DNA of 64,000 bases. It comes from a virus (taxonomy: Duplodnaviria > Caudoviricetes). Positions 1 through 40,593 of the stretch are shown here, piece after piece. The notes under the pieces are model-generated. The model was not told the origin of the DNA, did no database searches, and saw only the letters and a list, made by a program, of their open reading frames with translations. A program made the translations under genes and the position numbers. Numbering within the stretch: position 1 is the stretch's first letter; each line of letters starts with the position of its first letter. Location of the stretch: positions 6,209 to 70,208 of IMG/VR virus record IMGVR_UViG_3300014039_000032. One strand, given 5' to 3'.

Positions 1-1
1 G

Positions 2-442
2 CGTGTGAGCGAGCTGACGAGTATTGGCTACAAGCAGTACCGTGATAGAGTTGACAACCAACTCGTCATTACGGGTAAGGGCGATAAGCAGCGCGTGGTT
101 TATCTGAATCGTCAGGCGGTCGAGGCTATCAACCTCTACATCCGTACTGAGCGCAAGGCTGGCAGTGAGTTCCTGTTCGCAAGTTCTCAGGGCGGCAAGG
201 TGGATGCCAACAATTTTGACAAGACGCTCAAGGCTTTGGCTCGTAAAGCCGGTGTCAAGAACGCGGATGCTGTTAGCGCTCATACGTTTCGCCATAGCTT
301 TGCTTGCATCCTGAGCGAGAATGGCACGAGCATGGACGTGATTCGTGATTTGCTTGGGCATTCCTCGTTGGCTGTTACGTCCAGATACCTGAACCAGAAT
401 GCAAGCCGTATGCGTAGTGCCGCGATGGCCGTATCATTTTGA
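2..442 (+). CDS. Tyrosine recombinase/integrase (XerC/D-like), 5'-truncated by window edge
   Basis: Frame from base 2 reads RVSEL (catalytic R), GKGDKQR (K), HTFRH (HxxR), LLGH and TSRY (Y): the full tyrosine-recombinase catalytic set. Confidence 0.9.
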   Translation, partial: RVSELTSIGYKQYRDRVDNQLVITGKGDKQRVVYLNRQAVEAINLYIRTERKAGSEFLFASSQGGKVDANNFDKTLKALARKAGVKNADAVSAHTFRHSFACILSENGTSMDVIRDLLGHSSLAVTSRYLNQNASRMRSAAMAVSF

Positions 443-2723: not shown

Positions 2724-3443
2724 GTGAAATATGTTGGCAGTAAGAACCGCTTGAGCAAGCAACTCGCGCCTATTATCCAGTCGTATATTGACGGTATGCC
2801 TAATTGCAGGGGTTATGTCGAGCCGTTTGTTGGTGGCGCAAATATGATTGATAAAATCAAAGCACCGGTAAAAATTGGAACTGATATTCATAAATATCTT
2901 ATTGCTTTGCTCAACCATGTGCAGCAAACAACTAATGACCTACCTAACACTATTACAGAGACCGAGTATAATGCTGTGCGTATCAATCCTGACGCATATC
3001 CCGATTGGTATGTTGGGCTGGTTGGATTTTGTACGTTTGGCGCTAAGTGGTTTGGAGGTTATCCTCGTGGATTCAAAGCAGACGGTGTAACGCCGCGAGA
3101 TATTACCAATGAGGCTATTCGCAACATTAAGAAGCAAGCGCCAAAACTTAAAGGAATTATATTTGCGCGTAGTGACTATTGGAAAATTGGCGTAGGCGGC
3201 ATGGTTATCTACTGTGACCCGCCTTACCGCGATACAACCAAGTACGCAACGGGTAGCTTTGATTATGAAAAATTTTATAATTGGTGCAAACAGATGGCCA
3301 AGAACAACGTCGTACTCATTAGCGAATATTGGATGCCAGAGGATGGTTTTGAATGCATTTGGCAAGGTAATCTCAAGTGTACGCTGGACAAAGCAAGTCG
3401 AACCGACAAAGTTGAGCGGCTGTATATTTGTAAAGGTTGGTGA
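2724..3443 (+). CDS. DNA adenine methyltransferase (D12/Dam-like family)
   Basis: GTG start after GGAGG (2710); KYVGSK, YVEPFVGGA (SAM binding), YCDPPY (catalytic). Confidence 0.9.
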   Translation: MKYVGSKNRLSKQLAPIIQSYIDGMPNCRGYVEPFVGGANMIDKIKAPVKIGTDIHKYLIALLNHVQQTTNDLPNTITETEYNAVRINPDAYPDWYVGLVGFCTFGAKWFGGYPRGFKADGVTPRDITNEAIRNIKKQAPKLKGIIFARSDYWKIGVGGMVIYCDPPYRDTTKYATGSFDYEKFYNWCKQMAKNNVVLISEYWMPEDGFECIWQGNLKCTLDKASRTDKVERLYICKGW

Positions 3444-3448
3444 AGATT

Positions 3449-3679
3449 ATGAACGACCTCGAGAAAGCGCCAAATTGCTATCAATGCGCTTTGGACGATG
3501 TTTGCTTTGGATTGACGTGTACGGATTGCAATTTATACCAGCGGCAATATCTAAATGCTCAAGATGCTATGGAGGCGGCTATCCGGCGTATCCATGAGCT
3601 TGAGAAATCAAATCGCAACTGGAGGCGCAAAGCCCAGAGGTTGCGTAAAGAATTGAAGGAGGTAAAATATGAAGAGTAA
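3449..3679 (+). CDS. Hypothetical protein (Cys-rich, C-terminal coiled coil)
   Basis: ORF fills operon gap; CxxC motifs. Confidence 0.55.
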   Translation: MNDLEKAPNCYQCALDDVCFGLTCTDCNLYQRQYLNAQDAMEAAIRRIHELEKSNRNWRRKAQRLRKELKEVKYEE

Positions 3680-3839
3680 AGGTTGGATTGTAGCCATGGA
3701 CTTTGCGTTATGTGCTATGAACGCGGTTCTTGGCATTGCGCATATGGGGTCTGTGCCTATGTGGACAACAGCGCTTAGCCTGATGACGGCTGGAGCTTGC
3801 TTGGGCTTTGGGCTGTTCCTGATTTTCGTTGAGAGGTGA
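3669..3839 (+). CDS. Small hydrophobic membrane protein (56 aa)
   Basis: Read manually: MKSKGWIVAMDFALC...LFLIFVER; AAGGAGG SD; overlaps both neighbours. Confidence 0.45.
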   Translation: MKSKGWIVAMDFALCAMNAVLGIAHMGSVPMWTTALSLMTAGACLGFGLFLIFVER

Positions 3840-4915
3840 GCGGTATGACGTTTCTTGATTGGGCAAGCACAAGCCCCGTGATTCGATTTGCGGCAAACCA
3901 GTATGGTGTCCATTGCAATCCAAATGCGGCGTATGCCTATGAAGAGCGGGGGTTACTAATGGATTGTGAGGAGCGCATTAAGGCGGCTATCGGCGTTAAG
4001 AGTGGTCATGTGCTGTATTTCAGATGCGCAACAGAGGCTATTGATTGGTTGCACAACAAAAGTATCGCTCGCCAACCAGATGTGGAATGGTTTAATAGTT
4101 TAGTTGAACATGACTGTTGTGATTTTGGTGTTGTGTGCGGTGCAGACCAAGTTGAAGAATACTGCACAAGAGCTGTCATAGGAAGAGCCCGCAATTTAAG
4201 AGCCGATTTTTACATCCATCAATGGGTCAATCACGTCACAGGCGAAATTTTCAACCTTAAGGAAATCAAGGCGCAGTTGCCAGACACTTGCCGTCTCATC
4301 GTAGATGCTACGGCGGGATTTGGCAAAGTCAAGTTGCCACACGGCATTGAGAATATTGCCGATGCGCTGTTTATGTCTGGCCATAAGATTGGCCGCCCTG
4401 AGCTTTCGTTTATGTGGCTCAATGACGAGCTTTGCGAATGGCTTGGAGCGACCAAGGATATCCGCAATCAGTGGGGCTTACATCATGGCAGCTTAAGCGT
4501 GGCGAGCGTGCTGGCGTTGACTGATGCGGTTGAATGGGCTTGTGATGAGGATAGAGTTTGGAATGGCGAGTTAAAATTCGTATGTCTTGTCGATGATTTT
4601 TTTGATGGTCTGGATGACATTGCGGAATTTATTGGAGGAGACATGGTTGGAACGCTTGCTATCAACGCCATTCGCCTCAATGGTATCAATGCCGATGCCC
4701 TCCAGCAGTTTCTCGCCTCGCGCGGTATTTATGTTGGCGTAGGTGGGTCGGCTTGTTCTGCGGCGCATGACTATCGTGTGTTGCGTAACGGATATGGATT
4801 AAACAACGATGAAGCAGCTGAGGTTATCAGAGTATCGTTGGGGCCAGAGACAACGGCAGACGATATCAAGGCACTGGTTGATGGCGTTAAGGAATATCGT
4901 CGGCAATTTTGTTAA
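3836..4915 (+). CDS. NifS/IscS-like cysteine desulfurase (class V PLP enzyme)
   Basis: FLDWASTSP, ATEA, VEH, IVDATAG, SGHK (PLP lysine), GGSACS (persulfide Cys), IRVSLG. Confidence 0.8.
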   Translation: MSGMTFLDWASTSPVIRFAANQYGVHCNPNAAYAYEERGLLMDCEERIKAAIGVKSGHVLYFRCATEAIDWLHNKSIARQPDVEWFNSLVEHDCCDFGVVCGADQVEEYCTRAVIGRARNLRADFYIHQWVNHVTGEIFNLKEIKAQLPDTCRLIVDATAGFGKVKLPHGIENIADALFMSGHKIGRPELSFMWLNDELCEWLGATKDIRNQWGLHHGSLSVASVLALTDAVEWACDEDRVWNGELKFVCLVDDFFDGLDDIAEFIGGDMVGTLAINAIRLNGINADALQQFLASRGIYVGVGGSACSAAHDYRVLRNGYGLNNDEAAEVIRVSLGPETTADDIKALVDGVKEYRRQFC

Positions 4916-4984: not shown

Positions 4985-7900
4985 TTGGCCAACTATACAA
5001 TCCTGCATCTACACTCGATGCTATCCAACGGCGTGACAAACATCGACTCGGTAACGCCATACGACCAATACATTGACCAAGCGCACGAATGGGGCATGAC
5101 GGCTATGGCATTCAGCGAACATGGCAGCGTGTTTCAGTGGGTCAAGAAGAAGCTGCACATGGAAGAGTTGGGCATGAAGTTTATCGCGGCCGAAGAATTT
5201 TACCTTACCAACACGCTTGACGAAAAGATTCGCGACAACTACCATTGCTTGCTCATCGCCAAGAATTATGACGGCGTGCTTGAGCTAAACAAGTTGTCAA
5301 GCAAATCTTTCAACCGAGACGACAATTCGTTTTACTATGTGCCGCGCATCACGATTGATGACGTCAAGCACACGAGCGACAACATCATTGTATCGACGGC
5401 GTGCTTAGGTGGCGTGTTAAACAAAGCGCCTGAGCCTATTCGACAAGATTTTTTTGATTGGCTGTGTCAGCATCCTGACCGTTGCTTCCTTGAAATTCAG
5501 CCGCATATCAGCGCAGAGCAGAAGCGGTACAATCAAGCGCTTTGGGCGTTAAGCAAGCGCAGTGGCTTGCGGTTGTTGATGTGTACAGATACCCATGCGC
5601 TCAACGCCGAACACGTTGAAGGGCGCAAGATTTTACAGAAGGCCAAGAGCATCCATTTTGACGGCGAGGACGAATTTCACCTTGAGATGTTGAGTTATGA
5701 CGAGCTTGTGCGGCTATGCCAGCTTCAGAACGCCTTGCCTATGCAAGTTTATCTTGACGCCATTGAGATGACCAACACGGTGGCCGATATGATCGAACCG
5801 TTTGAGCTTGACTATAGCTACAAGTACCCGCATCTATGGGGAGACGATAGCGAACAGGTGCTTAGAACTAAAATTGCCGATGGCATCAAATGGCGCGGCG
5901 TAGACAAGCTGCCGAATTATCAAGAATATCTTGACCGCATTGAATATGAGATGAAGGCGTACATCCATAACGGCGCGATTGATTTCATGTTGCTCATGAA
6001 GGATATCATCGCATGGTGCAAGACGCAGGACATTCTCGTTGGCTATGGGCGCGGCTCATGTAATGGCTCAGTCATAGCTTATCTGCTTGGCATTACAGAG
6101 ATGGATAGCATCAAGCATGGGCTGAACTTTGAGCGATTCATGAACACCGAGCGTGTATCGTTGTCTGATATTGATACGGATTTTCCGCCAAGCAGAATCA
6201 ATGAGGTCAAGCAATACATCTTCAATAAGCATGGGCTGTATTGTTCAGACATTGTGACGTTCAATACTATCGCGCTTAAGGGCGCTATCCGCGATGTTGG
6301 CCGTGCGCTCGAGATTCCGCTGGCTGAGGTTGGCGAGATTTGCAACCGCGTTGAAGCGGATGAGGGTGGATGCCGCAAGCAATATCCTGAGCTGTTCAAA
6401 TACGTCGACATTGTGAATGGTTGCGTGGTGTCGGTTGGCTCGCATCCGTGTGGCGTAGTTGTGGCTGAGGGCGCGATTGATGACCGCATGGGGCTGTTCA
6501 CAACGTCAACCGATGCCTTCCCCATCAGCCAAATCAACATGAAGGAGGTTGACCTTCAGAATTACGTCAAGCTCGATTTGCTCAAGCTGGACACCATTGA
6601 GCTTATCAATGAGACGTGTAAGCTGGCGGGTATTGAACGCCTGACGCCTGACAATGTCGATATCAACGACAAGGCTGTATGGGATAGCATCAGAGATGAT
6701 ACCACAGCAATCTTCCAATGGGAAGGCGCAACAGGCGACAGGTATATCAAGCAGTTGCTATCTGAGAGCAACATCCAGAAATTCAAGAAGCTCAACCCCA
6801 ACGTGGACTATATGACGTTGTTGAGCATTGGTAATGGCGCGATTCGTCCTGCTGGCGCGTCGTATCGTGACGATTTGGCCAATGGCGTGATTCGCAAATC
6901 CGGCAATGCGGCGATTGATGAATTTATGAAGCCGACGTTTGGCTATCTGGTTTTCCAATGCCAGATTATTCAATTCCTGCATCAGTATTGCGGATACACC
7001 ATGGGCGAGGCAGATATTGTTCGCCGCCATTTCGCAAAGAAGACCGGCACAGAAAAGGATATTCCGCAAATCAAGGCGGGCTTTGCTAAGACCATGGCCG
7101 AGCAGTACGGTATGAGCCAAGAGGAATCGGATAAGGTTATCGCGGATTTCATTCAGGTCATCATGGACGCCAGCAACTACCTGTTCAGCCTTAACCATAG
7201 CCAGCCGTATAGCTATGAGGGTTATGTGTCTGGTTGGCTCAGATATCATTACCCGCTTCAGTTCTTGACTGTGGCGTTGAATATCAATCAAGGCAAAGAG
7301 GAAAAGACGGGGGCACTCACGGCGTATGCGCATAAGGTTGGCATCGGCATCAAGCCGCCAAAGTTCCGCCATTCCCGTTCGGCGTATTTCTGTGATACGG
7401 CAACCAACTGTATTTATAAGGGGCTTGGGTCTATCAAATACATGAGCAGCCAAGTTGCCGAGGCGCTGTATGGTATGCGCGATATGCAGTTTGGAAATTT
7501 CATCGATGTGCTGTTTGCGCTCCAGCAAATCGATGACAAGCCTGACAGCCGCCAGCTTGACATCCTTATCAAGATTGGGTACTTTGAGGAATTTGGCCCA
7601 GCAAAGGCGCTGTTGCTTGGCGTAGAGATTTTTAATAAATTTTTCAAGTGCAAGAATTTAAGGCTTGACAAATGGGCTGAGATGGGTTATAATATGGCTA
7701 TCTTGAAAGCCAACGCCGCCAAGCTCACAGATAAGACGGCTGGCGGGCTTAATAACCGTGGGCTTATCTTGGGCATTCTGCGGTCAATGAAAATGCCGCG
7801 CACAACCATCGTCGATAAGCTTAGATGGCAAGCTGAGTTGCTTGGCTATGTAGATGGCTCTGACCCGCGCCGAGACGTAAATGAATGGCTGGTACTTGCC

Positions 7901-35229: not shown

Positions 35230-38200
35230 TTAAGTTGCCGCATAGCTTCTCTGCATCGCCATCTGCTTGAGGCCATCAACAAATTGCTGGGCGTTACGCA
35301 CGCTCGGCAGAGAGACATTGGCCACATTCAAGATGGTGTTTCCAGCGCCAGATTTACTTGCAAACCAACGGGGGTCAGAGCCAATCTTCATCAGATTACG
35401 CGTAATGTCAGCAGGGATAATCCCGTCACCTTGATTCAACACGCGCAGCTCAGGCCCTTGTTCGCCAACCATGGCCAAGCCGCCACGGGCAGATGTTGTG
35501 CCGCTGGCATAGCCCATATCCGATAACTTCTTGCGCAACTCTTCATTGCGCTCATGAAGGCGCTTGCGCTCTTCCTCGTCAGCATCAAACCACGCCTGAG
35601 AATTTCGCGCAATCTCGTCCTCCATGCCCATAATCTTGGATTGTTCAGATTTACCAACGCTGCCGCTGAGACTACCGCCAGTCGTATTGTTTCGCCGAGA
35701 CGAACTGGAAGAGCTGGAACTTGTCGAGCCAGAATATCCAGATGTATAGCCGTACTTGTTCTTCAAACGATTCCACATATCCGCCGTGGATTCGCCCTGA
35801 ATGCCAAGCGCTTGCATTTTGGCATTACGTTGACCAATAACGCCTTTAATCCAGTCGTATCCGTAGCCCTTCTTAATTCCCTCTTCGAGGAGTTCGCCAT
35901 AGTCCGTATCTTTATCCCAGAGAGGATTATAAGCATTGACAATGTCAGCCCAAGCCTCTGCATCGCTCGCATAACCTTCGCCGCTACCGGCCCATTCGCC
36001 GGGCTGAACGCCAGAGCCAGAACCATAACCGCCTGAGCCACCACCAAGACCGGCCAAGATGCTATTGTACTGGCTCGCAAAACTCTGGAGGTTGGCCAAG
36101 CGAGTCTGCCAGTTGGCATTTTCTTGCTCGATACCAAACATCTGGTCGGCAAGGAGTTTGTTCTGCTGGTATTCATACTCACTGGTTAGATTGCTCCAAC
36201 CCTCTTTGTATTCCTCCCAACGCGCCTTCTCTTCTTCAAGTGCCGCCGTTTCGTTCTTGCGCAGAGTCTCGATATATTCCTGCTCGGCCTTGAGCGAATC
36301 CTCAATGTACTTCTTGCGGTTCTCGTAATCCTTTTGGCGATAGTACGCATTCAGCTCATTTTGGGATTTGCTTACCTCATCAGCATCGGCTTGATAGACA
36401 AACTGGCCATCCTTGAATACCATCTGCATAGTATTCTTGGCTTTGTCCAACGCCTCAAGTTTCTGCTGTAAAGTAATCTGGTCTTCAACAGCTTCATTCT
36501 GAGCTTCAAGAGCATCAAGTTGTGCCTGAGCACGTTCTTCCGCATCTTCAAGCATCTGGTCGTATTTGTCGTTGATGGAGTCGATTTGGTCTTGCAGTTC
36601 CTCGATTTTGCGAGAGGCGTACTCGACATAATAGTCGATAACGCCCTGCATCATCTGCTTCTGCTCATTTAGAGCATCAGAAACAGAATCAGATACATCA
36701 TCGACAGCGGATTCTGCATCTTTCTTGACCTCTTCGACGGCATCCTTAGCCTCTTCCTTATTCGCTTGAGTTTGCTTAGAGGTAGAAGTGCCACCACCGC
36801 CGCCGCCGCCGCCAGTCGAAGTTACAGTGGTCGGCGTATAGCTGGTCTTGAGAGAATCCCAAAGAGTCTTCGCATATTGCTTCTTGGCCATCGCCATAGC
36901 CTCTTCAGAGGTCTTGGCAAGGCCAGCCCGCATATAACCAGTTGCCGACGTGCGGATTTGGTTGGAAACCGTGGTCTCGTCCATACCAAAAACAGCCGCC
37001 ACAGCTTGAGCAGTATAGCCAGCTTGAAGCGCAAGGGCTTGCAGATTGGCAATCTGGCTCGACACGTCAAGATTGGTATTACCAACTGTGATAATAGCAT
37101 TGGCCAGCTTATCAACAAGCTCGGTGCTGGTTAAGTCGGCTTGGCTCATCACGGCTTGAAGCGCCGACACCTTCTGCCCAGTAGACAGCTCGGTATTGTT
37201 AACGTCAATGATGGCGTCAACAACATATTCCGTCAAAGCGTCGCCAGTCTTCTTGGCCTCTTGACCAGTTTGATACAGTCCGTCAACATAGTTGCTGACG
37301 TAGCTACTGGCAGACGACATAGCCTCTTGAGCATCGGCGAGAGCATAGGTCAACTGCCGCTCACTCTCAGTGGCCGTCATAATGTCTGGGTTTAGGATGT
37401 TGATAGCATCAGCCAAACGGCTTGCTTCAGATGTCGTCTTCTGATAGTCGGCAAGTTGTTCCTCATTCAGCTCATGATTCTTATCAAGCAAAGATTGATA
37501 TTCTCTGAGCTTTTCAATGAGCTTCTGGTAATATTCCTCACCAGTGATAGTTGTTGTAGTTTGCTCAAGACGAGTGCGGCCAGTCTTTCTGTCGGTCTTC
37601 TCTGTGTACGACGTCTCAATCGTACCCGCATTTTCAAGCGTCTGTTTGGCTTGCTTCTTCGCAAGTTCGTTGTATTTGTCAATCTGCGCTTGAAGCTCGG
37701 CGTTTTCCTTTTCAAGAGCATCTTTCTCCGCAAGAATCTCCGGCGTCTTGTCATTCCAAGCCATACCATTGATTTCTTCGAGGCGAGCCTTATTTGTCTC
37801 AAGTTGCTGAGTATCGGATTCAATAGACTCATTAAGTTCGTCAATGCTCTTACGACTGTCCTCAGTTGCTTTCCATAGAGCGCCGCCAATAGCCAATGCC
37901 GCAGCCACCGCAAGAATAACAGGCAAAGCGCCAGACAATAGAGTGGTAAGGCCACTAACAGCCACGCCGCCTTTGCTCATAGCCGCAGCCGTTGCGCTAA
38001 GACCCTTAGTCACAATGCTCGAGAATGTCTTGAATTGATTCGTAACAGCAGGGATAATCTTGGACGCCTGAAGCAACCCGGTAGCGCCCCAGCCAACACC
38101 AGTCAGTAATGTAATCTGCGTGACAATACGGCCAAGGTCTGTATTGGCAAGCTGTAAGAATCCATTGGCTAAGTCCAACACAGCTCCAACCAATTCGTCG

Positions 38201-38937
38201 TCAATGACGTTATTGGCAAGGTCTTGGAAAGTGGCCTTGACCGCCGTGGTCTTAGCTTCAAGACTCTCCATATACGCCGCATTTTCCTGAATGGCAGAAC
38301 CACTGGAATTGAGCGCCGTAGTTGTTGCATCTGTCGCGTGTTCAAAGTTCTGCATAACAGAAGCCAAAACCTTGTACTGGTTTGTGCCCGCAATCGCATC
38401 ACCAAGCGCGACCCGCTCGGCTTCGCTCATGCCATCCCATTTGGGCTTCAGCTCAGACAGGACGTCATAAGTGCTCTTAAGATTACCGTTTGTATCTTCG
38501 ACCTGAATGCCATATTCTTCAAGAGCACCCTGATTTTTGACTATGCGTGATGCGATGGTATTGAGACCGCGCGCGACTTGACTGCTGCGCCCAGTCATAA
38601 TTTCCGTACCAGCCGTCACAAGGCCAATGATTTCCTCAAATTCATTGCCATAGGTTGCCATACCAGCACTGGCAATTTCCATCGCTTGAGACAGGTCGTT
38701 AGTTCCTACCGAGAAATTGTTGGCCACCTCATTGTATGCGTCAATAACATGGGTGGCAAAATCCGCATCTTCGCCAAATGCACGAATTTGCGAAACAATA
38801 GATGACGCGGCATCCTCAGCGCTGACCGCCGTATCCGCTACGTTCTGATATTGTGCCGCAACCTTTGCGAGAGTGGCCGCATCTTCGTCGTTAAATCCAC
38901 TCTTACGGAAGGTTGTCGCCGCTTCAACCATTTCTGA
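35230..38937 (-). CDS. Tape measure protein, exon 2 (SEMVEAA...)
   Basis: TP901-type TMP core (YNEVANNFSVG, GRSSQVARGLNTI), TM segments, long coiled coils. Confidence 0.88.
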   Translation of the reverse strand, partial: SEMVEAATTFRKSGFNDEDAATLAKVAAQYQNVADTAVSAEDAASSIVSQIRAFGEDADFATHVIDAYNEVANNFSVGTNDLSQAMEIASAGMATYGNEFEEIIGLVTAGTEIMTGRSSQVARGLNTIASRIVKNQGALEEYGIQVEDTNGNLKSTYDVLSELKPKWDGMSEAERVALGDAIAGTNQYKVLASVMQNFEHATDATTTALNSSGSAIQENAAYMESLEAKTTAVKATFQDLANNVIDDELVGAVLDLANGFLQLANTDLGRIVTQITLLTGVGWGATGLLQASKIIPAVTNQFKTFSSIVTKGLSATAAAMSKGGVAVSGLTTLLSGALPVILAVAAALAIGGALWKATEDSRKSIDELNESIESDTQQLETNKARLEEINGMAWNDKTPEILAEKDALEKENAELQAQIDKYNELAKKQAKQTLENAGTIETSYTEKTDRKTGRTRLEQTTTTITGEEYYQKLIEKLREYQSLLDKNHELNEEQLADYQKTTSEASRLADAINILNPDIMTATESERQLTYALADAQEAMSSASSYVSNYVDGLYQTGQEAKKTGDALTEYVVDAIIDVNNTELSTGQKVSALQAVMSQADLTSTELVDKLANAIITVGNTNLDVSSQIANLQALALQAGYTAQAVAAVFGMDETTVSNQIRTSATGYMRAGLAKTSEEAMAMAKKQYAKTLWDSLKTSYTPTTVTSTGGGGGGGGTSTSKQTQANKEEAKDAVEEVKKDAESAVDDVSDSVSDALNEQKQMMQGVIDYYVEYASRKIEELQDQIDSINDKYDQMLEDAEERAQAQLDALEAQNEAVEDQITLQQKLEALDKAKNTMQMVFKDGQFVYQADADEVSKSQNELNAYYRQKDYENRKKYIEDSLKAEQEYIETLRKNETAALEEEKARWEEYKEGWSNLTSEYEYQQNKLLADQMFGIEQENANWQTRLANLQSFASQYNSILAGLGGGSGGYGSGSGVQPGEWAGSGEGYASDAEAWADIVNAYNPLWDKDTDYGELLEEGIKKGYGYDWIKGVIGQRNAKMQALGIQGESTADMWNRLKNKYGYTSGYSGSTSSSSSSSSRRNNTTGGSLSGSVGKSEQSKIMGMEDEIARNSQAWFDADEEERKRLHERNEELRKKLSDMGYASGTTSARGGLAMVGEQGPELRVLNQGDGIIPADITRNLMKIGSDPRWFASKSGAGNTILNVANVSLPSVRNAQQFVDGLKQMAMQRSYAAT

Positions 38938-38956
38938 CGTGGTTGTTTAGTCTTGA

Positions 38957-39289
38957 TTATTTTTTCTTTGGGTCATAGATGCCATAGTCATTGTCGTATT
39001 TGTCAAGCGTTTTGACTTCATCAATCATCTTCTGCCGCTCATCTGGGTTGTCCATGCGCTGCTGAGACCCAACAATCATGGCATTCAGAATAGTCCCAAC
39101 GAACGCCCAAATTCCAACGGCAACGCCAAGGTGGTCAGTAGTCGCGCCAAGATACATACACAGCGTGAACCAGATGATATTAAAGATAAAGACACCACCG
39201 GCTTTGCCATGTCCGCGCATACAAGCCCCAGCAATGCCCTTGCAGATACAATAGATGATGCCGACCCACATTCCAATTACCAATACCAT
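38957..39289 (-). CDS. 3-TM membrane protein inside the TMP intron
   Basis: GGAGGT SD 6 nt before ATG; three hydrophobic helices followed by a charged tail; no nuclease motif. Confidence 0.8.
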   Translation of the reverse strand: MVLVIGMWVGIIYCICKGIAGACMRGHGKAGGVFIFNIIWFTLCMYLGATTDHLGVAVGIWAFVGTILNAMIVGSQQRMDNPDERQKMIDEVKTLDKYDNDYGIYDPKKK

Positions 39290-39321
39290 AATTTAACCTC
39301 CAATATTTTTTTGATGGTTAG

Positions 39322-39350
39322 AGTATAGCATAGGAGAAAATATTTGTCAA
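39322..39350 (-). promoter_or_regulatory. sigmaA-type promoter inside the intron
   Basis: TTGACA-N17-TATACT with extended -10 TG. Confidence 0.78.
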
Positions 39351-39686
39351 GACTAAATTTCCGAGAGTTTTCAATTCTCGCCTGAGTACTTCTTCGGCCT
39401 ATATAATTTGGAGGCTCGCCCTGTATACTCGATTGACACACCGCTCATCACGGCTTCGCGCCCAAGCTGCCCTTTTGTCACGGATAGTATATAATATTCG
39501 TGACATAGCGGTTAGGTCTTTCAACCATGCACCATCCTTGCCGTTTTATCGGTTTCCCACATTCACGCTCAGGCTTATCTCATCCTCACGTTGTAGTGAC
39601 AAGGCTCTTCAGGCTTTCAAGGGTTTAGGGGCTGTTCTCAGTGCTGGTTTACCATCCCATCACTCCGGCTCAGACCGATTTGGTTT

Positions 39687-40070
39687 GCCGGTTCGTGCTA
39701 CGGTTTTACCCATCTCTGCGAGATTCTGGACGTAGCTCTCCAGTCCACTTCCACGCAAATCCGAAACTTTCTTAAATTCCGTCATCGCGCTATTCAGCGT
39801 ATATACTTGCTCGACCATGCTGGAAATCGCATCAACGGAACGTCTGAATACCTCATTCATTGCGTTGAATGTCGCTTCAACATCGCCAGCATCTTTATTT
39901 ACTTGCTGTGTTGCGCCAGACATATCATTCAACTCAGCCGTAACCGAGCGAATGCCCTTGCCGTCAACCTTGAACGTGACCTTCTTGGCGGCATTGTTAA
40001 GTTGCGACTGGATATTGTTTAAGTCAAGTACAACTTTCGCAAGAATACTATAATCATTGTTAGAAGCCAT
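39687..40070 (-). CDS. Tape measure protein, exon 1 (MASNND...VARTG)
   Basis: LNSAMTEFKKVSDL is a TP901-TMP N-terminal pattern; the ORF's stop lies inside the intron. Confidence 0.8.
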
Positions 40071-40086
40071 ATCTCACACCCTTTCA

Positions 40087-40593
40087 TTATTTGTGATTTT
40101 GGCTTTGGATGACTGCCCAGCCTATGAGTATAGCCTCGGCTTCGTCATCCTCATTTTTTGTGCTCTTTGGCTTAACCCATGTCAGGTCAAGCCCAAATAT
40201 TTCATTGGCCATACGCACGGCTTTCTCTTTAAGAACATCGCGCTGAAGGCCAGCTCTTGTGCCGTCAAACATCCCAAGCTCACGCCGCCAAACACTCGGC
40301 AACAGGAACGTCGGCTTGAGTCTAAATCCTGCGCAAAGACTTAGAATCATACCTTGTACTGCACCAAGTTTAACAATGGTGAGCTTACCATCCTTCATGG
40401 GCACGTCCTCTGCGTACACCACATCAGGCCGATGCTCTCGGATAATCGCCGCAAGCTCCATGGTTTCAGCCATGACGTTCTCACGCCAATCATCATGTCT
40501 CTCCTTAATAACGCCATGGGCCACAAGTTGCTCGCCATCAAATATCGCCCAACCCGTTGATTTGGTAGAGGCGTCAAGCGATAAAATCTTCAC
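40087..40593 (-). CDS. RuvC-like Holliday junction resolvase
   Basis: ILSLDASTKSTGWA, VYAED, PSVWR, DDEAEAILIG. Confidence 0.8.
   Translation of the reverse strand: MKILSLDASTKSTGWAIFDGEQLVAHGVIKERHDDWRENVMAETMELAAIIREHRPDVVYAEDVPMKDGKLTIVKLGAVQGMILSLCAGFRLKPTFLLPSVWRRELGMFDGTRAGLQRDVLKEKAVRMANEIFGLDLTWVKPKSTKNEDDEAEAILIGWAVIQSQNHK

Follow-up and report, generated by a model that had tools for sequence, protein, structure and literature searches.

The locus described here lies in a 64,000-nt stretch of DNA (hereafter the window) from a 70-kb IMG/VR phage genome that is 94% complete. A tyrosine integrase gene (Phage_integrase, 115.7 bits) at the left end of the record (record 6129-6611; window 1-442, plus strand) points to a temperate lifestyle for this phage. 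In the part of the window around the tape-measure protein (TMP) gene, all genes were on the minus strand, and the TMP gene itself was broken between ARTG and SEMVEAAT by a 749-nt insert (39686-38938). In unspliced RNA, the exon 1 frame continues for nine codons to a TGA at 39662-39660 (ORF 40070..39660), and the downstream part of the gene is read as a 1233-aa ORF (38931..35230). The tail domain PhageMin_Tail (Pfam PF10145, E=4.3e-24) was picked up in the downstream ORF, with profile position 19 falling at its residue 2. A terminator-like hairpin (35225-35196) was found past the end of exon 2. An in-frame ATG is present at 38931, six bases past the 3' splice site, with no visible Shine-Dalgarno (SD) sequence. 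The RuvC-like Holliday-junction resolvase gene directly upstream of the TMP gene in the tail module (40087-40593, minus strand) is also kept in metagenomic relatives, one of which (L008) carries a NUMOD-type endonuclease gene inserted just ahead of it.

As a reference for the junction we used Enterocloster phage PMBT24, the best annotated among the closest cultured relatives, in which the TMP is uninterrupted and reads ...TVARTADEMVEAAT... and in which the RuvC-like gene likewise precedes the TMP gene. Exon 1 was 31% identical to the N-terminus of the PMBT24 TMP, and exon 2 was 52% identical to its residues 143-272. Joining G128 (39687) to the serine codon at 38937 gave ARTG-SEMVEAAT at the same length as in PMBT24, for a protein of 1363 aa. 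By this comparison, the upstream and downstream ORFs are two parts of one TMP. The junction was set by the PMBT24 alignment together with P1/P10 pairing and covariation in relatives. We also considered 5' splice sites ending in U (after 39678), but these would add three residues relative to PMBT24 and were unsupported by P1. The features of the locus are collected in Table 1.

Table 1. Features of the interrupted TMP locus in window coordinates, listed in the direction of the minus strand.
Feature	Coordinates	Strand	Details and evidence
TMP exon 1	39687..40070	-	128 codons, ending ...TVARTG; ORF list
Predicted group I intron	38938..39686	-	749 nt; ends in the terminal (omega) G, G38938
Internal guide sequence UCUGAGCCGG	39665..39674	-	exact reverse complement of the ligated junction CCGGC-UCAGA
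P2 hairpin with invariant GAUGGUAAA loop	39640..39664	-	compensatory changes in 5/7 pairs
P3 5' strand GCCC	39629..39632	-	pairs with GGGC 39421-39418; pseudoknot with P7
Conserved module in P5 extension	39560..39606	-	blastn, about 92% identity to a stretch of the ICP1 TMP intron
Peripheral hairpin GUCACG...CGUGAC, P4-P5 domain	39478..39507	-	alignments of relatives
P6/P6a hairpin	39436..39459	-	inside the 31-nt core word used for collection scans
P7, P3 3' strand, P8, and J8/7	39384..39430	-	compensatory changes in 2/5 pairs of P7 and 2/5 pairs of P8
P9 hairpin CGAGA...UCUCG	39362..39380	-	compensatory changes in 5/5 pairs
Closing helix, 5' arm	39338..39357	-	perfect core 39357-39347; overlaps the -35 box
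Predicted sigma-A/sigma-70-type promoter	39322..39350	-	TTGACA (39350-39345), 17-nt spacer, TGc, TATACT (39327-39322)
Cargo gene, 110-aa membrane protein	38957..39289	-	ATG start, three TM helices, charged C-terminal helix carrying ...LDKYDNDYGIYDPKKK
Closing helix, 3' arm	38946..38965	-	perfect core 38956-38946; spans the last codons, the stop, and the next bases
TMP exon 2	35230..38937	-	starts SEMVEAAT...; PhageMin_Tail from profile position 19

Related introns were collected with a 31-nt word from the core, which retrieved 17 IMG/VR contigs, and with a degenerate version of the word, which retrieved 75 metagenome contigs. The core-word contigs and the loci reached via the cargo protein brought the set to 72 complete introns, of which 63 were unique. 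They all shared one insertion site in the TMP gene, and where the name of a record stated its source, this was the human gut. The core word had no match in 185,579 reference genomes and the collection therefore allows no assignment to a host or prophage. An allele that has this junction but no intron was likewise looked for in IMG/VR, with 0 matches.

The ends of the insert indicated how it would be spliced. In the guide sequence, GCCGG pairs with the end of exon 1 (CCGGC, 39691-39687) to form P1, and UCUGA pairs with the start of exon 2 (UCAGA, 38937-38933) to form P10; relatives in which exon 2 starts with UCGGA preserve a G.U pair in P10. Such adjacent placement of P10 and P1 within ten guide bases is the canonical arrangement of an internal guide sequence. 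P1 also covaried with exon 1: in two independent cases both strands had changed and still paired (CUGGU with CCAG; CGGGU with CCCG). The last base of the intron was G in all copies. The C that the window has at its 5' splice site proved to be a synonymous minority variant of the canonical base: the last base of exon 1 was U in 60 of the 72 copies, giving the canonical U.G, and C in 12 of 72, namely the window and 11 others, in which a GGU to GGC change (C at 39687) gives a C-G pair in P1. A C-G pair at this position makes the first step less efficient in the Tetrahymena ribozyme.

To describe the core we counted structure on an 18-sequence alignment covering P1, P2, P3 (the pseudoknot), P4, the P5 extensions, P6, P7, P8, and P9. 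The core helices P3-P9 occurred in canonical order with the P3/P7 pseudoknot. Across the alignment, 99.4% of cells paired and compensatory changes were seen in 24 of 66 pairs, vs 0-5 when the partners were slid by one to three columns. P7 is formed by GAGUA (39430-39426) and UACUC (39388-39384), also occurs as GAGCA/UGCUC or GAAUA/UAUUC, and encloses the P3 3' strand, P8 (GCCU 39415-39412 with AGGC 39400-39397), and J8/7 (GAAGAAG). The arms of P6a were CCGU/CGGU in 35 copies and UCCU/GGAU in 28, so that the pairing survives two double changes, and P4 was invariant and hence carried no covariation signal. For P3, the L018 group of relatives has U-A in place of C-G, a double change that matched the partner at 39421-39418. 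A nested RNAalifold solution that instead paired GCCC (39632-39629) with GGGC at about 39463-39460, just before the P6 hairpin, could not explain this double change and was rejected.

The periphery of the core was more variable. The hairpin at 39478-39507 was found in L018-type copies, was missing in the closest relatives (the type-A carriers L004-L008), and was replaced by a different hairpin in others. Peripheral loops of the P4-P5 domain thus carry lineage-specific hairpin insertions, of about 29 nt in the window and about 56 nt in L006 (around 2700-2760), with the core invariant. The 47-nt module in the P5 extension has its ICP1 counterpart at L001 2501-2548, within the Rfam Intron_gpI match and in an insertion between the P5 strands, and the catalytic cores of the two introns differ. 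Stretches with 84-89% identity to the module were also present in Bacillus phage SP-15, in an annotated capsid gene, and in Streptococcus phage Str-PAP-1. The module may be a portable peripheral RNA element.

The Rfam model for group I introns (RF00028) did not match the window, neither at its gathering score nor at E up to 10, and the case for an intron was therefore built on anatomy and comparison. The same model does score the TMP introns of ICP1 and of two relatives (L028 and L029). We read the miss in the window as the effect of a divergent core and a large insertion and not as a missing fold. By anatomy and comparison, the TMP gene holds a group I intron of the self-splicing type whose core is divergent.

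Downstream of P9, the intron carries a gene cassette. The original prediction of a 110-aa ORF with an SD site, a TTGACA-17-TGn-TATACT promoter, and a bounding 11-bp repeat was borne out in every element and position, all on the minus strand. The promoter scored 11/12 plus the TG extension and was the top sigma-70-type match of the promoter scan on the minus strand between 33 and 46 kb; transcription would be expected to start near 39315. The ribosome-binding site, GGAGG at 39301-39297, lies 7 nt ahead of the ATG. The perfect 11-bp repeat (38946-38956 and 39347-39357) was the sole inverted repeat of at least 9 nt in 38900-39420, lengthened to 20 nt at 80% complementarity, and had its 3' arm abutting the TAA stop (38959-38957). 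By estimate, about 0.03 perfect 11-bp inverted repeats would be expected by chance in 520 nt. We consider the recurrence of the same architecture with different sequences in relatives to be a stronger argument than this figure.

In these relatives, the 5' arm of the closing helix again lay over the -35 box and spacer and the 3' arm over the last codons and stop. For the 63 unique introns, the closing duplex had a median of -17.6 kcal/mol, with z below -2 against shuffles in 44 of 63. The sequence of the helix changed with the type of cargo (for example, ACAAAUUAUUCAAU/AUUGAAUAAUUUGU in L011), and a mismatch that L008 has in the window-type arm was offset by 10 bp of additional helix. The placement of the cassette in the loop of a peripheral stem in the P9 region, as originally proposed, is thus supported: the cassette would lie on the 3' side of P9, looped out by a long-range closing helix that recurs with different sequences. 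We also considered that the inverted repeat might represent the terminal repeats of a transposable cassette. This was judged less likely than an RNA helix, as pairing was kept across 29 distinct sequences around the -35 box and the arm mismatch in L008 was offset by helix extension.

The promoter was equally persistent. TTGAC(A/T)-17-TAnnnT followed P9 in 72 of 72 introns, with the TG extension in 70 of 72, while the sequence of the spacer differed between groups. No terminator-like site with a convincing T tract was found between 38957 and 35225, and RNA started at the promoter would therefore include exon 2. GC content was 0.42-0.48 over the cassette vs 0.44-0.52 nearby, and the cargo gene (about 0.48) did not differ from its surroundings. 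The label of a moron therefore holds in part: the cassette has its own promoter, with hexamers and 17-nt spacing kept in all 72 copies, but it lacks its own terminator, which sets it apart from a textbook moron, and its GC content is unremarkable.

We then compared the contents of the introns. Intron length ranged from 590 to 1078 nt; none was shorter than 590 nt, hence none was empty, and no cargo-less copy was found among the 72. The unique introns carried one hydrophobic ORF in 48 cases, two in 8, and three in 7 (26-125 aa), and the ORFs that were inspected were preceded by an SD site or translationally coupled to the previous ORF. None of the 72 copies had an endonuclease-like ORF or any ORF longer than 125 aa. 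The ribozyme core was nearly invariant while the cargo split into at least six sequence clusters. This is the pattern that the original prediction proposed to look for, a conserved core with swapped P9 cargo, here of one to three ORFs per intron. With such a cassette kept in all 72 copies, the intron seems to serve as a stable vehicle for an accessory gene.

The cargo protein of the window was modeled with AlphaFold2 (pLDDT 75) as three helices (residues 2-23, 30-51, and 54-80) followed by a charged C-terminal helix (82-102). Close homologues (54-94% identity) were all found in the same intron position. Pairwise dN/dS among cargo genes was 0.07-0.33 at dS values between 0.4 and saturation, whereas the neighboring ribozyme core was almost invariant, and no Pfam or PHROG family of the LAGLIDADG, GIY-YIG, HNH, or His-Cys box type matched the cargo or its homologues. 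The possibility that the ORF would turn out to be a degenerate nuclease therefore fell away, and by its substitution pattern the cargo is a real protein-coding gene that evolves as a protein.

An exhaustive phmmer search added 15 members at E up to 0.001, with one false hit of 3418 aa excluded: this protein (P0014) matched the tail of the cargo through low-complexity similarity, is repetitive, and is not a relative. The 15 members were 78-120 aa long and had two or three TM helices; at the C-terminus they had the motif ...Q(D/E)KYDN(D/E)(W/Y)GIID..KK in common. The number of TM helices ranged from one to three across homologues and the conserved part was the tail motif KYDNxWG. All seven homologues whose context was checked (7/7) lay between TMP exons of phages from the human gut. 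Among four remote members, those on L028, L030, and L031 were in the same intron, and P0021 (on L029) was in a different one: a canonical intron (RF00028, 52.4 bits) at a TMP site after ESxEAK, at about residue 227 of exon 2, where the gene again came with TTGACA-17-TATAAT, an SD site, and a closing stem. The occurrence of P0021 in a second intron ties the cassette, and not just this one intron, to TMP genes.

Homology gave no function for the cargo. A tblastn search against 50,697 phage records found no match; Pfam, PHROGs, and PADLOC returned nothing for the cargo and its homologues except one weak match at chance level; Foldseek with the AlphaFold2 model found nothing in BFVD at E < 0.8; and a feature search of the ESM Atlas returned only the cargo's own cluster and unnamed clusters. 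The TM prediction and structure search suggested with the original prediction thus confirmed the three TM helices and yielded no structural match.

Together, these data make it very probable that the locus is an intron bearing a promoter-driven membrane-protein cassette that is not a nuclease. Sequence and comparison established the split gene, the intron helices, and the conserved promoter, ribosome-binding site, ORF, and closing helix, and from these we infer splicing as well as the use and timing of the promoter. Late in infection, transcription would run through the entire TMP gene, the closing helix (39357-39347 with 38956-38946) would place the 3' splice site back at the core, and the guide sequence would align both exons, so that splicing would join ...ARTG to SEMVEAAT... 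and yield the 1363-aa TMP. Separately, host RNA polymerase would start near 39315 and produce a cargo mRNA without the ribozyme, either at an early stage of infection or in the prophage state. We put the probability of the entire explanation, meaning this anatomy, independent expression of the cargo, and exclusion of other phages as the leading function, at roughly 65%.

For the function taken by itself, we tentatively propose that the cargo may block competing or superinfecting phages at the membrane, a suggestion that we place short of even odds. The model for this is HK97 gp15, a small inner-membrane exclusion protein that is encoded by a moron next to the TMP gene and that blocks genome entry in a tail-dependent manner (PMC3594210). 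As in HK97, a small membrane-protein gene with its own promoter sits within the tail operon at the TMP gene, where its expression would be independent of late transcription. Unlike the cargo gene, gp15 is intergenic and not intronic, and it has its own terminator. There is no sequence relation to gp15 or the YebO family, the cargo having no Pfam family at E up to 0.1, and the likeness is one of position and protein type. As neither a family nor a structure match was found for the cargo, exclusion is proposed by analogy alone. Diversification into at least six clusters fits a gene involved in conflict.

The same anatomy would also accommodate a cargo whose target is the host or the element that carries it, as a small membrane toxin or addiction module, an anti-defense factor against a membrane-bound host system, or a modulator of host physiology in lysogens. 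Small hydrophobic proteins with charged tails, present in up to three translationally coupled copies per intron, would suit such a role, as would the fast diversification of the cargo (at least six clusters), a typical trait of conflict genes; homology assigns no function. Against it, there was no match in PADLOC or to any other family and no link between the cargo and any defense system, and it would leave unexplained why the cargo is strictly tied to TMP genes in two introns that are unrelated. We consider this unlikely, and a role in the timing of lysis, as a holin- or antiholin-like protein, more improbable still. The cargo does resemble class I holins in general shape (a length of about 100 aa, three TM helices, then a highly charged tail at the C-terminus), and a few of its BFVD neighbors are annotated as holins, but these had Foldseek E > 2 and no holin family in Pfam or PHROGs matched. 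Moreover, the number of TM helices varies from one to three in homologues whereas the KYDNxWG tail is conserved, the gene has a host-type promoter and lies inside the TMP gene and not in a lysis cassette, and PMBT24 has a separate annotated holin.

The weakest alternative, for which we see hardly any room, is that the insert does not splice at all, so that the TMP would be made as two polypeptides and the RNA-like region would be a leader or regulatory structure for the cargo: Rfam does not recognize the insert and an in-frame ATG (38931) lies near the start of exon 2, but this ATG has no preceding SD, the guide is complementary to the ends of both exons and changes in step with exon 1, all copies have the terminal G and 60 of 72 have U.G, covariation backs the P3/P7 pseudoknot topology, the break falls inside the PhageMin_Tail domain that is unbroken in PMBT24, and the structured region cannot lead an mRNA made from the cargo promoter because that promoter sits downstream of it.

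Returning to a spliced intron with an exclusion gene as its cargo, a more far-reaching version is that gut SPbeta-like phages have domesticated an endonuclease-less group I intron lineage as a deletion-proof expression platform, whose proteins with the KYDNxWG tail block TMP-mediated entry of competitors. Since the edges of the cassette (the -35 box and spacer on one side, the last codons and stop on the other) would form the helix needed for TMP splicing, loss of the cassette would be lethal to the phage, and an entry block would explain why the cassette occurs solely in TMP introns, two unrelated cores included. We regard this extended proposal as doubtful.

Introns in TMP genes are already known from the literature, and an intron-associated ORF with its own promoter has a precedent in ICP1, where Porf80 is annotated ahead of an HNH gene. 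As in the window, ICP1 has a group I intron in the TMP gene, an essential phage gene, and introns of this type carry a peripheral ORF outside the catalytic core with its own promoter; the P5-extension module is shared as well (about 92% identity). T4 td/I-TevI is likewise a phage group I intron with an endonuclease ORF that has its own expression signals. In the TMP region of ICP1 (HQ641347, L001), RF00028 gave two main matches (973-1264 and 2394-2726, at 77.9 and 38.9 bits) besides weaker overlapping ones; these flank the HNH gene ORF80 with its annotated sigma-70-like promoter, and the record itself annotates no intron. In contrast to endonuclease introns, the cargo here consists of one to three small membrane proteins with no nuclease motif, all 72 copies lack a nuclease and none is empty, and the core of the window is missed by RF00028. 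A group I intron of the fungal mitochondrial rnl gene houses rps3, a protein gene that does not encode an endonuclease. It resembles the locus described here in that a group I intron stably carries a non-endonuclease gene, but rps3 encodes an organellar ribosomal protein and has no independent promoter, whereas the phage intron holds an accessory membrane cassette with a bacterial promoter. Our literature search found no paper on a phage group I intron with a promoter-driven membrane-protein cassette as its cargo.

Group I introns in phages are generally accounted for as carriers of homing endonucleases, subject to a cycle of gain, decay, and loss. The lineage described here lacks an endonuclease and had a promoter-driven small membrane-protein cassette in every copy found. 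This suggests that introns may also persist in another way, by carrying a gene that is useful to the phage and structurally tied to the splicing of an essential one. The cargo also defines an uncharacterized protein family with a C-terminal KYDNxWG motif and one to three TM helices, providing an experimental handle on superinfection exclusion or other membrane-level conflict in phages of gut Clostridia. In annotation, gene callers split such TMPs and overlook the intron, and Rfam misses this core.

Further interruptions of TMP genes were seen during the comparison. In Enterocloster phage CB457P1 (L003), the TMP is broken at a different site by about 1.1 kb (3230-4347); this insert holds a 157-aa ORF without a Pfam match and gave no Rfam intron at E up to 0.01. 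One of the relatives with the window-type intron, L028, has a second, canonical group I intron in TMP exon 2 (761-1034; RF00028, 80.1 bits), which is followed by an ORF resembling a GIY-YIG-type endonuclease. The TMP gene of L028 thus contains both kinds of intron, nuclease-bearing and membrane-cargo, marking the TMP gene as an intron hotspot.
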